NCBI GenBank assembly: GCA_965215125.1
Contig: OZ244052.1
Coordinates: forward strand, 1,952,001-2,016,000
Source of the DNA: an uncultured candidatus Porisulfidus sp.
GTDB taxonomy: Bacteria; Pseudomonadota; Gammaproteobacteria; Poriferisulfidales; Oxydemutatoraceae
Reading direction: 5' to 3'
DNA length: 64,000 nucleotides
Positions 5,099 to 49,747 of this stretch are shown piece by piece (the stretch's first letter is position 1; every line of letters begins with the position of its first letter). A program made the translations under genes and the position numbers. The notes beneath the pieces were generated by a model. It was not told the origin of the DNA, ran no database searches, and saw only the letters and a program-made list of their open reading frames with translations.

Positions 5099-5361
5099 CA
5101 TTCCCCTCCTTGTAGGGACGGACTCGTATGTCCGCCCTTAGGGTGGCAGGCGCAGCCTGACGGGGTGGTTGTGTCGTGTCTGCATGATTTATACATTCAT
5201 CCATCCAATTTATGGAAACCAAAAACAAATGGCGCAAGCGATTACGGCTGTGCAGAACGGCACTTAAGGGCAGACATATCAGTCTGCTCCTACAGGTGGG
5301 TTGGATAATTATACGGCGCATAGCGATTGGGTTCGTGCAAAACGGTATTTTTTCAACAGCC
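5099..5361. repeat. Composite REP/MITE-like repeat containing two empty IS110 target hairpins
   Basis: CATTCCCCTCC module, GTAGGGACGGAC-TCGTAT-GTCCGCCCT hairpin (5112-5139), AGGGCAGAC-ATATCA-GTCTGCTCCT hairpin (5267-5291), terminal TTTTTCAACAGCC. Confidence 0.85.
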
Positions 5362-44149: not shown

Positions 44150-46078
44150 GTGAACGGGCGAATACAACAGCTCGCCGTATCGGGCATGCTTATGCTTGCG
44201 TGTCACGGTGTTTTTGCAAACCAGCTATTACAAAAGCAAAGAACCTTATATCTCAAAGCCGAACAAACGCTCAAGCAAGGACACGGTGCTTTCTTTTCAC
44301 AACAGCGTGATTTGCTAAGCGACTATCCGTTGTACCCTTATCTGTTGTATCTAGATATGGCAAGACGCATCGCATCTGTGGAAACCAAGACCATCGTCGA
44401 TTTTCTAAATTTCTATGACGGCACACCGGTTGCCGACAAATTGCGCTATAAATGGTTGAAGCATCTGGTAACTAGAAATAATTGGCAACTATTTGCACAA
44501 CACTATCGGGCCGGCCGGTATTACTCGGATAAAGAACTCGCTTGTTTTTATGCGCAGAGTCTGCTACGGAGCAATCGTTTTAATGAACTACGTGCTTTGG
44601 CAAAACAACTATGGTTAGTCAATTTCTCTCAACCTTCGGAGTGCGATGCCGTTTTTCTATGGGGCAGACAAACTCGAGCGATTGACCAAGACCTGATATG
44701 GCAAAGGATTCTATTGGTTGTCAAAGGCGGTCGTTTGAGCCTTGCCGATTATCTCGCAAAGCAATTGGATGCCGATACACGCAAATGGTATGCTCTGCTC
44801 AAACAAGCCCATTCTCATCCGTTCAAAGCATTGGCAGAAATAGAAAGCCACTCAAAACATTCTCCATTTCTGCACCAAGTGCTTTTATATAGTCTGTGGC
44901 GGACACGAAACGAAGACTTACATAGAACGCACGCTTTGTGGAAAGGCATGGAGCGGTCTTTTAGACCTTATTCCGATGTCTACGAACACGCACGCAAAGA
45001 TTTAGGTATTTCTGCGTGCTGGCAATTAGAACCCGAGATAGGGTTGTACTATCTATCGTCCCTCGATGTTGCCGCTGCCGATGAGAATTTTTATCATTGG
45101 CGCATACGGTGTGCGCTTCGTTTGCAGAAATGGAAAACGGTTTTAGAAACTATTGAAGCATTAGACGAACCGAACCGAACGAGTAGCAGATGGCTTTACT
45201 GGAAAGCACGAGCACTCGAGCGTTTGGGAAGAGACGAAGAGGCAATGGCTACATGGAGACGCGGTGCCTCCGAGGCAAGTTATTACGGCTATTTGGCCGC
45301 CGACCGTATCGGCGCACCGTATGCGTTGTCTACCGTACTTCCCGAAGTCGAGCGAGCGACCCTAAACAAAGTTAAAGACTCGGATACGATGAAGCGAGTA
45401 TACGAGTTTTATGATATGGATAGGATTTTTGATGCCCGGCGAGAAATGCTATATCTGTTGCCTACAATGAGTAAGGACGAACGTCTAGGTATTGCTTTAC
45501 TATGCAGACAGTGGGGTTGGGCTACTTGTGCGATTGAAGCACTGAGCGACCCGATGTTTTGGCATAAAGAATTAGAGCTGCGTTTTCCTATGCCGTATGG
45601 CGATCTCGTCGCTGCCCAAGCTCGTCAAGCCGATCTGCCGGCGCACTGGATTTATGCGGTAATGCGCCGCGAGAGTGCGTTCATAGAAGATATTAAATCG
45701 TCGGCAGGCGCACTGGGTTTGATGCAACTGATGCCGGCGACCGCTCGTCGCGTTGCTCAAGGTGCAAAGCTAAGTTATGCCTCTAATCGGTCGCTATTGC
45801 AACCCACGCTGAATATGCGGCTGGGGAGTACTTATCTAAGGCAAATGTACCTCGTCAACGACCGAAATTGGGCAGCGGCACTTGCCTCGTACAACGCCGG
45901 CCCTCATCGCGTTAAAAAGTGGAAATCGCAATCACCGGTATACGATGCAGATATCTGGATAGAGACGATACCGTTTGTCGAAACTCGTCGTTATGTAAGG
46001 GCTGTTTTGTTCTATACGGTTGTCTATTATTACAAGCTCCACCATAAGGCGATACGACTGAAAACTCTGGTACAGTAA
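44150..46078 (+). CDS. slt: Soluble lytic murein transglycosylase
   Basis: Signal peptide, YPLYPYL, RRESAF, GLMQLMP, SYNAGP, ETRRYV. Confidence 0.9.
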   Translation: MNGRIQQLAVSGMLMLACHGVFANQLLQKQRTLYLKAEQTLKQGHGAFFSQQRDLLSDYPLYPYLLYLDMARRIASVETKTIVDFLNFYDGTPVADKLRYKWLKHLVTRNNWQLFAQHYRAGRYYSDKELACFYAQSLLRSNRFNELRALAKQLWLVNFSQPSECDAVFLWGRQTRAIDQDLIWQRILLVVKGGRLSLADYLAKQLDADTRKWYALLKQAHSHPFKALAEIESHSKHSPFLHQVLLYSLWRTRNEDLHRTHALWKGMERSFRPYSDVYEHARKDLGISACWQLEPEIGLYYLSSLDVAAADENFYHWRIRCALRLQKWKTVLETIEALDEPNRTSSRWLYWKARALERLGRDEEAMATWRRGASEASYYGYLAADRIGAPYALSTVLPEVERATLNKVKDSDTMKRVYEFYDMDRIFDARREMLYLLPTMSKDERLGIALLCRQWGWATCAIEALSDPMFWHKELELRFPMPYGDLVAAQARQADLPAHWIYAVMRRESAFIEDIKSSAGALGLMQLMPATARRVAQGAKLSYASNRSLLQPTLNMRLGSTYLRQMYLVNDRNWAAALASYNAGPHRVKKWKSQSPVYDADIWIETIPFVETRRYVRAVLFYTVVYYYKLHHKAIRLKTLVQ

Positions 46079-46097: not shown

Positions 46098-46245
46098 GGT
46101 CCATTCCCCTCCTATGGAGGGGTGGCAGGCTTCGCCTGACGGGGTGGTCGCAGAAGCTGGGCTGTTGAAAAAGTGCAGACATCGCACAAATCCAACCGCT
46201 TTGCGCCGTATAATTATCCAACCCACCTGTAGGGGCAGACTGATA
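46098..46245. repeat. Composite repeat, part flanking the IS110 right end
   Basis: CATTCCCCTCC module, GGGCTGTTGAAAA, and the half-hairpin GTAGGGGCAGACTGATA matching 5277-5340 in reverse. Confidence 0.85.
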
Positions 46246-46317
46246 TGATGCCTTATTAAAAGTCAAGTTATTTTATTCGTTTTTTATCTTTTTCTATCTC
46301 CTCTTCTGAGTATCAAT

Positions 46318-47304
46318 TTAGGACGCAGATACGCAACAATAATTCGGGTCAAACGGTTTCTTGTGCTTGAGTATTCCGTAAATGATACGCGTCAGTTTAT
46401 GGGCGCAAGCAACAATAACCTGCTTTTTGGTTAAATCCGGACGCCGCCGGCTTAACTGGTCGGCGAACGCACGGACGATTGGGTTATGAACCCGAGCCGA
46501 GAGTGCCGCCATAAATAGTGCGGTGCGCAGGTGTGCATCGCCAATTTTAGAGATGTGCGCCTTCGCCTCGTAGTTGCCGGATTGCTTGCGCATCGGAGTG
46601 ATGCCGATATAGGCGGCAAGTTGCTTTGGGTGTTGAAACGTATTATCATCAAAAGCTGCACATAGGGTGGCTGCGGTTTGAGTTCCGATTCCAGTAATAG
46701 AGCAGAGCAATTGATACTGCTGTGTGAGTTGTTCGTCTTCAGCGATGATTTCGTAAAGTAAGGCGTCACACTCATGGATTTGTTTCTGGAGGTGAGCGAG
46801 TTCTGCAGCTGCCTTCTTTTTGAGCTGCATACTGCGCAGCGTCTTTGCACAGTTGCTTAACTGCGTATGGGACTTGGTTAATTGCCGGCGCCATTTCAGT
46901 GTATCTCTCAAGGCGAATACTGCTTCGGTAGGCTGTTCCCAGTCTTGAATATCACCGACTGCAAATGCGAAGCGTGCGATGAGTTGCGCATCAACGCCAT
47001 CGGTTTTATTACGCATACCCAGCGTTTTGCGGTAGCTCGCGACCTGTACAGGTGGCACAATCGTGATGGGATGTTGGTCATAGCTTTCCATGCACAGGTC
47101 TAGCTCAAAACCGCCGGTTGCCTCAACGCAGAGGCGACACTGTTGCGCACCATGCTCGGTAGCCCAAGATAACAGTTGTTTGATGCCTTGGGCATCACTA
47201 CTAAATTGTTGCTCGGCAAAACTATTATCAGTGAATAATAGAGCCGCCTCTAAAGTGTCTTTAGAGACATCAACGCCAATCGTGACGGGTTGTTTGTTTT
47301 CCAT
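46318..47304 (-). CDS. IS110 DEDD recombinase (bridge recombinase type)
   Basis: GVDVSK, VEATG, KTDGVDA RuvC-like DEDD residues; SITGIG, G-x-x-P-x-x-x-QSG catalytic-Ser motif, ISKIG, A-x-AHKL. Confidence 0.95.
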   Translation of the reverse strand: MENKQPVTIGVDVSKDTLEAALLFTDNSFAEQQFSSDAQGIKQLLSWATEHGAQQCRLCVEATGGFELDLCMESYDQHPITIVPPVQVASYRKTLGMRNKTDGVDAQLIARFAFAVGDIQDWEQPTEAVFALRDTLKWRRQLTKSHTQLSNCAKTLRSMQLKKKAAAELAHLQKQIHECDALLYEIIAEDEQLTQQYQLLCSITGIGTQTAATLCAAFDDNTFQHPKQLAAYIGITPMRKQSGNYEAKAHISKIGDAHLRTALFMAALSARVHNPIVRAFADQLSRRRPDLTKKQVIVACAHKLTRIIYGILKHKKPFDPNYCCVSAS

Positions 47305-47344
47305 AATAAATTACTCCATAAGGGTTGGTTAATGAATGAAATAC

Positions 47345-47540
47345 TAGGTATCAAACACAGTTTAGGAAAGTATGACTACGCCGCCCAAACAGATGAATAC
47401 GAGATCTAAAGTCCCAAGCTGCCTTTCGAGCTCTATAGTCATAACGCCGGAGGAGTGCTTTTCATACCATCAGGCTTTAATGCCTCGTCCGTCCTGCAGC
47501 GTGTCTCCTCCGACTTCCTAGGCACTGCATCTACCTAAGC
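47345..47540 (-). ncRNA. Putative IS110 bridge RNA in the non-coding left end
   Basis: Two stem-internal-loop arms (47514-47446 and 47443-47371) carry sequences matching the target and donor junctions; the ends are estimated. Confidence 0.75.
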
Positions 47541-47570
47541 GTTTATCTTATATCAAATAAGCCAGGGTTT

Positions 47571-47576
47571 AATATA
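47571..47576 (-). promoter_or_regulatory. -10 box (TATATT) of a split promoter; the -35 TTGACT is at 46266-46261 in the other IS end
   Basis: Circularisation gives TTGACT-17 nt-TATATT. Confidence 0.8.
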
Positions 47577-47580
47577 TCTG

Positions 47581-47795
47581 TCCGCCCTAAAGTTCCGTTC
47601 TGCACAGCCGTAACCGCTTGCGCCGTATGGTTTTGGTTTCCATAAATTGGATGAATGAATGTATAAATCGTGCAGGCGCAACGCGTTACGGGCAGAATAG
47701 AGCCGCCGATTGAGCCGGTAGGTCAATCGGCAATTCAATTGAAGTCCGCCCCTACGGTGTATGAAATACTTTTTCAACAGCCCCAGCGTATCTGC
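47581..47795. repeat. Composite repeat, part flanking the IS110 left end
   Basis: Reverse complement of 5170-5274, then a CCGATTGA...TCAATCGG hairpin, GTCCGCCCCTAC and TTTTTCAACAGCCCC. Confidence 0.85.
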
Positions 47796-47890: not shown

Positions 47891-49747
47891 ATGAATGGTG
47901 ATTTACATAGTCTATCAAGAATAGTAAGTACATCAAATGGTTATCTGAGATTTAATCACAGCACCGGTAATCTGCAGACTAACGGCGGTAATTTTCTAAG
48001 CAGACTGGTAGTCTGGATACGTTTCAAAACCAGTTCGAGTTATAGAAGTTCAGTCTTAGATGCCAAGCGTCGGATTATGGAATCGATGTTATCCGATAGT
48101 GTCTACGGCGAAGACTTTCGTCAAAAAATAGAAGGCTTAGATAGAAGGCATGGATTTTTCTTCAACGATAAACCTCTGTCGGCAAGAAAAGTACGTCGCT
48201 TTATAAATGATGTAACGCAAGATGTGAATCAAGTACTTCATCGGGAAAGGTCCCAGGAGGAATTAAGCAAAGGTTTGGTTGATTGGGTATGCGGCAAAGG
48301 CAACACCATAGCGAGCGGTGAGACTTTCGAAGATAATCTACATGCGATGCTCGTCGAGAAACTGCAAGATGAACATGGTATCACAGCGGCGGATGTCGAT
48401 CTAAAGGGGATAGGTGACGAGATCCATCAAGCCTCCTTGAATGATCGAGAAGGGATGGCGACTGTCACCGACGGTGCGCAAGCTACCGTGCATGTAAGCA
48501 AGGCTATGTCTCGTATTTTGGAGGGGCGTATTGCCGATGCACGCTCGGTGAACCAAGCAAAATTATGCAGGCGGTTATCTGTTTCGGGCTTGTCCGAGAC
48601 GGAAATGGACACGGTAAATGCGGAGATTGCCGCATCTAAAATTACAACGATGGATGAATTAGACCAACATGTAAATCGCTTAATCATACTAAAAGTAGAC
48701 GAGGAATTTCCGCAATTACTTCAACGAGCACAAGCGGAACAAGATTTTAACGGCGAACTTGCGCAACTATCCGAGCTGAGGGCACAATTAAAAGAAGAGC
48801 TTACACGGCAGAGCGATCATCGGATGTTGTCGATGCAGGCTGCCCGCGACAAAGTCGGTCAATTATTAAATCGTTGGCTTGAAAACAAGCAACAAGCGAT
48901 CGCCGCAGCGCAAGAGAGTCGACACACAAGCATAGTCGATGTATTAACCAAACTTGCATTACAGGAACCTCGGGCGCGCAAAGAGCATATTCAATCTTTT
49001 AGACAAACGATAGAGCAGACCTTGGATGAGATTTACGAAAAAAACCGTTCCGATTATGAAGCACTCAATGTTGCTAAGGCAAAACTTTTCTCCATGTTAT
49101 ATAAATTTGATCGCCGAGAAGTATTATTGAAGCGTTTGCAGGATTTGGTTAAAGAGACGCAAACGGCAAGTTCTCTGTTTGAAGACGATATTCGGCAAGT
49201 TCCGGACATTAAAGGCGTGGCTAAAAGATATGTTGAATCGGTGAGTAAGCCCATGGTACGAAGCCACGCAAAGGTGTCGGCTTTAAGAGGAAGAATTCCG
49301 GATTATATTTTCCATACCATGCTGGAGAAAGTAAGCAAGGGTTATGTATGGGAACCGAGGTTTGTTTCTGCGGCAAACGGGATGCACATAGCCAACCTGA
49401 CTAAAAAGGAAAACGAAGGGCTTTATGCGTTATTGGACTCACCGCAAGTTGCGCGAAAAAGAATAGGTAGCAGGGAAGACTTCGTTAGTTTTAGCTTAGA
49501 CGATTTACTCAAATCGATGCTGGGTCCTAAAAACATAGATAATCACAAAAAAAGGAGACAAGCCATAGATCAAGTGGTGCCCGACGAAGTTAAAGTCAAA
49601 CTGTTGGATGAATTGGATCGTCAGTTGTTGATGGTACGGAGCAGGGTTATGGATGAAGAAGATGCGAATGCTTTATTTGAAAGAGGAACGGTTAGATTTT
49701 TACGCGCCCAAGACATTAATTTTGAAGCGATGACCGCAAAGGAATGA
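47891..49747 (+). CDS. Large helical hypothetical protein, paralogue 1 (candidate secreted effector)
   Basis: 618 aa with GGAGG RBS; shares N- and C-terminal blocks with the next two ORFs. Confidence 0.75.
   Translation: MNGDLHSLSRIVSTSNGYLRFNHSTGNLQTNGGNFLSRLVVWIRFKTSSSYRSSVLDAKRRIMESMLSDSVYGEDFRQKIEGLDRRHGFFFNDKPLSARKVRRFINDVTQDVNQVLHRERSQEELSKGLVDWVCGKGNTIASGETFEDNLHAMLVEKLQDEHGITAADVDLKGIGDEIHQASLNDREGMATVTDGAQATVHVSKAMSRILEGRIADARSVNQAKLCRRLSVSGLSETEMDTVNAEIAASKITTMDELDQHVNRLIILKVDEEFPQLLQRAQAEQDFNGELAQLSELRAQLKEELTRQSDHRMLSMQAARDKVGQLLNRWLENKQQAIAAAQESRHTSIVDVLTKLALQEPRARKEHIQSFRQTIEQTLDEIYEKNRSDYEALNVAKAKLFSMLYKFDRREVLLKRLQDLVKETQTASSLFEDDIRQVPDIKGVAKRYVESVSKPMVRSHAKVSALRGRIPDYIFHTMLEKVSKGYVWEPRFVSAANGMHIANLTKKENEGLYALLDSPQVARKRIGSREDFVSFSLDDLLKSMLGPKNIDNHKKRRQAIDQVVPDEVKVKLLDELDRQLLMVRSRVMDEEDANALFERGTVRFLRAQDINFEAMTAKE

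Follow-up and report, generated by a model that had tools for sequence, protein, structure and literature searches.

An IS110-group insertion sequence with a CA core and a predicted bridge RNA in a candidatus Porisulfidus genome

Does an insertion sequence (IS) of an uncultured candidatus Porisulfidus sp. carry an RNA that guides it to its own insertion site? The question is raised by the minus-strand element at positions 46246-47580 of the window, the whole stretch of 64,000 nucleotides analysed here (contig OZ244052.1, positions 1,952,001 to 2,016,000, assembly GCA_965215125.1). The host genome (G000; 2.22 Mb, one contig, 46% GC) shares its genus with a 'Candidatus Oxydemutatoraceae' metagenome-assembled genome (MAG). 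An earlier note had read the element as an intact IS110 recombinase gene preceded by a left end that folds into two guide-bearing arms, in the manner of the IS621 bridge RNA. Comparison with related copies makes it very probable that it is an IS110-group insertion sequence moving by bridge-RNA-guided recombination. The element is a well-supported and well-documented new member of a mechanism known since 2024, because bridge RNAs are a general feature of the family, predicted in 85.7% of IS110-group elements according to Durrant 2024. Knowledge of the mechanism is unchanged by the finding; the points of interest are the CA core, a natural series of guides and exchanges of modules.

The element measures 1335 bp including a CA at each end, that is, 1333 bp and one core. 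Its boundaries and the sites that it touches are as follows.

46246-47580, minus strand: whole IS110-group element; ends set by eight other copies of the same genome and by uninterrupted paralogous repeats with one CA
47579-47580, minus strand: left copy of the CA core; the only sequence common to both junctions in all copies
46246-46247, minus strand: right copy of the CA core; junction comparison of copies, and empty sites with a single CA
47581-47587, minus strand: left target, positions 1-7, GGGCGGA, the left arm of a palindrome resembling a repetitive extragenic palindrome (REP); sequence and copy comparison
46241-46245, minus strand: right target, positions 10-14, TATCA, in the loop of the REP-like palindrome, with the right arm TCTGCCCC next; sequence, copies and empty sites

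The ends and the CA core proposed in the earlier note were confirmed by eight further copies with recognisable ends in the host genome. Their left junction reads ...GG[CA]GGA-CA, then GATATATT..., and their right junction ...AATAAGGCAT-CA (tip AAGGCAT-CA), then T[GA][CT][CA]A[GA]-TC[CT]GCCCCTA. CA stands at both junctions in 9/9 copies, and three uninterrupted paralogous repeats contain a single CA (...GGGCAGA-CA-TAT[CA]AGTCTGC...). The assignment of CA as the core dinucleotide is supported by both the junctions and these empty paralogous sites. The flanks of the copies and the uninterrupted repeats place the element in the loop of a REP-like palindrome, (A)GGGCGGA-CA-T[GA][CT][CA]AG-TC[CT]GCCCC. 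About 100 GGGC[AG]GACA sites are found in the host genome, 9 of them occupied by the element. The right target of the studied copy, TATCAG, is a minority variant, most sister copies being at TGCCAG or TGCAAG. The target that had been put forward for a recombination assay exists exactly, as an uninterrupted repeat at window positions 5267-5282.

Contigs of two of four public DNA runs (X1, X5) join 46245 to 47579 with a 2-nt overlap, skipping exactly the element. A reading of this joint as excision was set aside: the flanks are multi-copy repeats, with a depth of about 40-60 thousand against about 1.5 thousand, and the side of the joint is only 30 nt. It may represent paralogous empty sites and is treated as such. 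Contigs are about 30 times deeper over the flanks than over the IS body. The palindrome and its conserved flanks form a composite repeat of about 120 nt that occurs many times in the genome, and within the window at 47581-47700, 46100-46245 and 5235-5320 (plus strand), the last being the unoccupied twin of the insertion site studied here.

The non-coding left end, announced as about 270 nt long, stands as such, its length being refined to 274 nt after the core; the right end has 70 nt. Long terminal inverted repeats are absent from the element, the donor being flanked by ATA/TAT only (3 nt). Between the two ends lies a single gene.

46318-47304, minus strand: recombinase gene, 328 amino acids (aa), DEDD RuvC-like and Tnp domains; Pfam matches and alignment to the IS621 structure

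The gene had been called intact, and this is borne out by a full open reading frame (ORF), 99% identical to two other full copies. Its product matches PF01548 (DEDD_Tnp_IS110, 5.2e-20) and PF02371 (Transposase_20, 2e-25), both above cut-offs, and the nearest solved structures are those of the IS621 and ISCro4 recombinases, with E about 1e-42 (8wt6, E 1e-42). Residues D11, E60, D102, D105 and S241-G242 of IS621 align to D12, E61, D102, D105 and S242-G243 in a phmmer comparison with 8wt6_A, the positions being counted by hand along the alignment with the +2 offset of that chain. These residues are invariant in 6 clade members. The description of the recombinase as 'intact programmable' would follow by homology.

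The predicted RNA of the left end consists of the following parts, listed from structure to guides.

47517-47539, minus strand: 5' stem-loop CUUAGG/CCUAGG, or else its 3' half pairs with 47362-47367, closing both arms by a helix; compensatory pairs number one (stem-loop) and two (helix), all in one lineage
47446-47514, minus strand: arm 1, target-binding loop module, with a 10-bp outer stem, an internal loop and an inner hairpin (47472-47485); folds, stem invariant in 11 variants bar one mismatch
47371-47443, minus strand: arm 2, donor-binding loop module, with a 9-bp outer stem, a 5-bp second helix and an inner hairpin (47400-47416); folds, RNAalifold and pair counts
47486-47494, minus strand: left target guide (LTG) GGACGGACG, in the sense of left target plus core GGGCGGACA; 7 matches and 1 wobble of 9
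47463-47469, minus strand: right target guide (RTG) UGGUAUG, complement of CA plus TATCA with one G-T wobble; 6 and 1 wobble of 7, covarying across types
47417-47425, minus strand: left donor guide (LDG) AAGGCAGCU, set against the element right tip plus core AAGGCAT-CA; 7/9 match
47390-47394, minus strand: right donor guide (RDG) AUCUG, exact complement of CA plus GAT at the element left tip; 5/5, with covariation
47461-47462, minus strand: candidate handshake guide AA of loop 1, the first A of which can pair with donor T7; column A and donor T invariant, placed by the rule of Hiraizumi 2024
47388-47389, minus strand: candidate handshake guide UU of loop 2, with possible pairs to target A7 and G6 (one by wobble); pairing lost in lineage G004_a

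All the stem and guide strings quoted in the earlier note are present on the minus strand. The outer stem of arm 1 is made of GTCGGAGGAG (47514-47505) and CTCCTCCGGC (47455-47446), enclosing the inner hairpin AGGC-ATTAAA-GCCT (47485-47472), and that of arm 2 of TATGACTAT (47443-47435) and GTAGTCATA (47379-47371). The guide strings are AGGACGGACG (47495-47486), GGTATG (47468-47463), AAGGCAGC (47425-47418) and ATCTG (47394-47390). The complementarity claimed for GGTATG with core plus right target, including its G-T wobble, and for ATCTG as exact reverse complement of core plus right donor CAGAT, was found as described. The two-arm fold was likewise recovered: minimum free energy folding predicts both arms and their inner hairpins, whether applied to the left end of 276 nt or to 156 nt of it, and RNAalifold over 11 left-end variants predicts both arms. 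Over these variants 99.8% of stem cells are paired, compared with 31-49% when the partners are slid.

The arrangement of the guides follows the IS621 rule as given by Durrant 2024, in which the 5' side of each internal loop runs in top-strand sense for 8-9 nt and 4-7 nt of its 3' side are the complement of the top strand. Shuffling the left end by dinucleotides often yields single guide matches (LTG-like in 494, RTG-like in 1118, LDG-like in 392 and RDG-like in 1191 of 5000, or 8-24%), whereas all four, correctly ordered and spaced, occurred in 0/5000. As the criteria of the shuffling were fixed after the search made for the earlier note, covariation across relatives is the stronger test.

Covariation was examined in 28 distinct insertions of 6 guide types from 4 genomes of the genus, the related elements having 61-72% protein identity. 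The pairing of the RTG with CA and the next five target bases is fully Watson-Crick (7/7) in 21/28 insertions, 6 plus one wobble in 5/28, 6 without wobble in 1/28 and 5 plus one wobble in 1/28. The right target guides and their targets are distributed as follows.

RTG TTGCATG, core and right target CA-TGCAA: type B, 3 insertions (2 TGCAA, 1 TGCCA); type G003_a, 2 insertions (both TGCAA)
RTG TAGCATG, core and right target CA-TGCTA: types G003_b/c and G004_a, 6 insertions (5 TGCTA, 1 TGTTA)
RTG TAACATG, core and right target CA-TGTTA: 12 insertions
RTG TGGTATG, the type of the studied copy: targets TGCCA three times, TATCA once and TGCAA once

With a REP arm GGGCGGA the LTG reads GGACGGAC[G/A], and with an arm GAGGG it reads CGAGGGCT or GAGAGGATT; in hosts with the REP GAGGGC, its CGGAC is replaced by GAGGGC or GAGGA. 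When guide types were permuted over targets, only 2/720 assignments reached the observed score of LTG and RTG together. On the donor side, the RDG follows the left tip of its own element, ATCTG occurring with CAGAT in 11/11 cases and ACCTG with CAGGT in 17/17. The LDG is mismatched at donor position 7, where it has G in 10/11 variants and a matching T in sister type B. In the RNA body, nearly all differences between the type A and type B left ends of the host genome fall on guide positions, and the spacer just upstream of the ATG varies in 34/65 columns while the stems are invariant. The proposed IS621-type layout is thus supported, since the published rule holds in the studied copy and the guides covary with target and donor among homologous left ends.

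Handshake pairing is only partly supported, and only at position 7. Handshake guides are reported to pair with position 7 of the other substrate (Hiraizumi 2024). In loop 1, the candidate A would pair with donor T7 in 11/11 variants. In loop 2, a U-A7 pair can form in G000 and G003 and a U-G wobble in G004_b/G001, and G004_a has a G-G mismatch.

In the samples searched, no member of the clade turned up beyond the genus. Among 400 genomes scored in a sample of the class (G287 left out), only G000 itself matched at E <= 1e-50. No relative was found in a metagenome scan, a scan of genome contigs returned only the sister MAG and two relatives of about 31% identity, and the best match of a plasmid search was 33.5% identical.

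Several observations weigh against a guide RNA or limit the case for it. The folding z-scores are unremarkable (-0.95 and -1.62). Because the stems hardly vary (40/46 stem pairs are invariant and only 1 is compensatory), the predicted structure rests on conservation and energy. No relevant match was obtained with Rfam 15, for which the inclusion of a bridge-RNA model is not established; two chance-level matches (E 0.35 and 4.6) to unrelated eukaryotic families lie outside the left end. Pairing with the left target is imperfect, with a constant A-C mismatch at position 3 in the G000 and G003 types, a poor LTG fit in the abundant G004_b/G001 type (5 matches and 1 wobble of 9), and a second core base matched by the LTG in type B only. 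Variable columns amount to 17/39 in guide segments, 8/82 in stems and 15/51 at other unpaired positions, classes that were defined after seeing the data, and the difference in variability between guide and other unpaired columns is not significant (p = 0.19). The six guide types are close relatives in one genus and represent few independent events. Transcription of the bridge RNA, its binding to the recombinase and the activity of the studied copy, which is chimeric as set out below, are predictions.

The studied copy was compared with lineages B (L003) and A2 (L007), the recombinases of which share about 70% protein identity. Up to element position 399, 34/35 informative sites follow A2; after it, 235/237 follow B.

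47176-47182, minus strand: recombination breakpoint at codons 41-43; 5' side from lineage A2, 3' side from lineage B, by informative sites

The copy is thus a natural chimera, with the RNA module and the first ~41 codons from A2 and the remaining recombinase from B. This opens the alternative that the element is of the bridge-RNA type and the copy itself an inactive relic, the chimeric RNA and recombinase being no longer able to work together. The breakpoint within the gene and the distance of about 30% between the parental proteins speak for it, as does the presence of decayed copies in the host genome: a left-end deletion affects one, another IS interrupts two, and several are left-end stubs. 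Against it, the ORF is intact and nearly identical to those of the two other full copies, and the RNA stems are identical between both lineages, so that the protein-bound scaffold would be unchanged. The TATCA target also fits the copy's own A-type RTG (6 and 1 wobble) better than the B-type RTG, which suggests insertion after, or together with, acquisition of the A-type module. A comparable swap of left end and recombinase is found in L046 of a sister genome. Loss of function in this copy is considered unlikely, though worth keeping in mind.

Alternatively, the guide-like strings could act as DNA, either as sub-terminal repeats bound by the recombinase or as captured host REP kept similar by gene conversion. 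Since the target is palindromic, the LTG followed by the RTG resembles the REP bottom strand, and AAGGCAT recurs four times in type B copies. However, the left end lacks the second REP arm, for which reason capture of a REP was rejected, and a conserved hairpin separates the two halves. Located within internal loops of conserved stems, the segments show, in both loops, the sense/antisense pattern published for IS621; the donor-side change (T/C with A/G) is compensatory and not a copy. A role as DNA is accordingly judged very improbable. A reading of the LTG in the opposite register on the REP bottom strand was also rejected, as it fits one lineage by a single base only. That the left end is merely promoter and 5' untranslated region, with matches produced by chance in a targeted search, is hardly credible: the frequency of single matches in shuffles and the weak z-scores would allow it, but the joint occurrence in none of the shuffles, the covariation with different targets in four genomes, and the invariant stems next to a variable spacer upstream of the ATG do not.

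A predicted promoter for the RNA spans the joined ends.

47571-47576, minus strand: -10 box TATATT; sequence, conserved in 9/9 representative elements
46261-46266, minus strand: -35 box TTGACT of the right end; joining of the ends brings it to 17 nt from the -10 box, a spacer of 17 being kept in 9/9

The motif TTGA[CT]T-17-TATATT is present across the joined ends in all 9/9 representative elements, and no sigma-70-like site was found upstream of the RNA in the integrated state. The predicted sigma-70 promoter would form only when the right and left ends join. By homology with IS621, the element would excise as a circle, and the TTGACT-17-TATATT promoter created by the joining of its ends would drive a transcript of about 195 nt of the left end. 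The loop-2 guides AAGGCAGCU and AUCUG would recognise the element's own right and left tips, and a recombinase tetramer would exchange strands next to CA through Ser242.

The resemblance to known systems was assessed with the IS621 copy L066, the 177-nt RNA of which was folded. IS621, ISCro4/IS622 and the studied element have the same Pfam domains and all five catalytic residues. Like IS621, the element has a long left end and a short right end, the arrangement described for the IS110 group by Durrant 2024, and a 2-nt core at both ends. The RNAs present the same order of 5' hairpin, target-binding loop and donor-binding loop, with an inner hairpin between the sense and antisense guides of each loop. 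In both, ATA/TAT flanks the donor, the LDG is unmatched to the second core base and the promoter is split across the circle junction, as predicted here and as reported for IS621, where it is reconstituted at that junction (Durrant 2024, Hiraizumi 2024). Donor position 7, where a mismatch is tolerated by IS621 (Durrant 2024), corresponds to a guide position that is naturally variable in the studied clade.

The differences are a protein identity of only about 32-35% to the IS621 and ISCro4 recombinases, a core of CA instead of CT, a spacing of 6 nt instead of 7 nt between ATA and the core, an LTG that in most types is unpaired with the second core base, and a possible extra helix closing both arms (two compensatory pairs, in one lineage). 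In the literature examined, no natural CA core was found, the cores mentioned there being limited to CT and the engineered AT, GT and TT. The clade may already be listed in the supplementary IS110 database of Durrant 2024. The IS110 elements ISPpu9 and ISPpu10 of Pseudomonas putida likewise insert, by their published description, into repeated extragenic palindromes or stem-loops, and for ISPpu10 the target stem-loop is reported to contribute additionally to specificity. Elements of the IS1111 group (seekRNA type) share the DEDD recombinase and RNA-guided targeting, the latter predicted here, and are described as carrying the RNA in a long right end, with sub-terminal inverted repeats of 7-17 bp. 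Membership of that group was rejected, as the studied element has its long end on the left, a right end of 70 nt and repeats of 3 nt.

Bridge recombinases are under development as programmable genome-rearrangement tools, and the orthologues described as characterised use a CT core. A CA-core orthologue at about 33% identity to IS621 is a candidate with different sequence constraints, and its natural variants provide a ready-made table of guide changes that accompany target changes. Chimeras of left end and recombinase suggest that RNA scaffolds and recombinases are interchangeable within the clade. For the host genome, guided targeting explains the restriction of these elements to one REP family. 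More tentatively, and short of an even chance in our estimate, the genus may hold a small radiation of CA-core bridge recombinases in which the RNA guide module is freely exchanged and guides are re-written to host REP variants, the U-G and G-T wobble of the single guide UGGUA perhaps covering several REP loop variants, T[A/G][C/T]CA. On this reading, at least two swaps of the left end between recombinase lineages about 30% apart have taken place, in the studied copy and in L046. If true, this would be a natural experiment in reprogramming, and the orthologue, with its core other than CT, would tolerate left guides that leave the second core base unpaired.

Other copies in the host genome are rearranged in various ways. 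At G000:C1:1428671-1429754 (L005/L052), a deletion joins the inner hairpin of loop 1 to codon ~36 of the recombinase gene; its junction lies within an 11-nt direct repeat, AAGGCATTAAA, present at both places in type B. Two A2-type copies, at G000:C1:297947-300503 (L008) and 763818-766317 (L009), share a nested insertion of 1140 bp, identically placed and with an overlap of 6 nt, which encodes a 367-aa transposase with helix-turn-helix and rve (DDE integrase-type) domains. The two composites are 99.9% identical over 2499 nt, and so the disrupted IS110 and its passenger may have moved as a unit, with functions supplied in trans.

Left-end fragments at G000:C1:1402490-1402606 and 585642-585709 end right after GGCAT-TA (GGTAT-TA in the second) in the inner hairpin of loop 1. 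The GGCAT-TA ends resemble the element right tip plus core, AAGGCAT-CA, and the fragments might be products of pseudo-donor recombination (compare the 'half-match' described in a preprint). IS left-tip stubs of about 45-60 nt are found inside otherwise normal REP targets at G000:C1:521848-521929 and 2109565-2109617; these scars were left by earlier insertions that then underwent internal deletion.

Immediately upstream of the insertion site, window positions 47680-47761 (minus strand) form a second long, imperfect palindrome. It is probably part of the composite repeat family, and gave a chance-level match to a microRNA model (E 0.35, under the gathering score). An ORF of 618 aa adjoins the IS at 47891-49747 (plus strand), without Pfam match at E <= 0.001. 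The neighbouring gene on the other side, at 44150-46078 (plus strand), encodes a soluble lytic murein transglycosylase with SLT and SLT_L domains, and the IS sits in the repeat-rich spacer that follows this gene.

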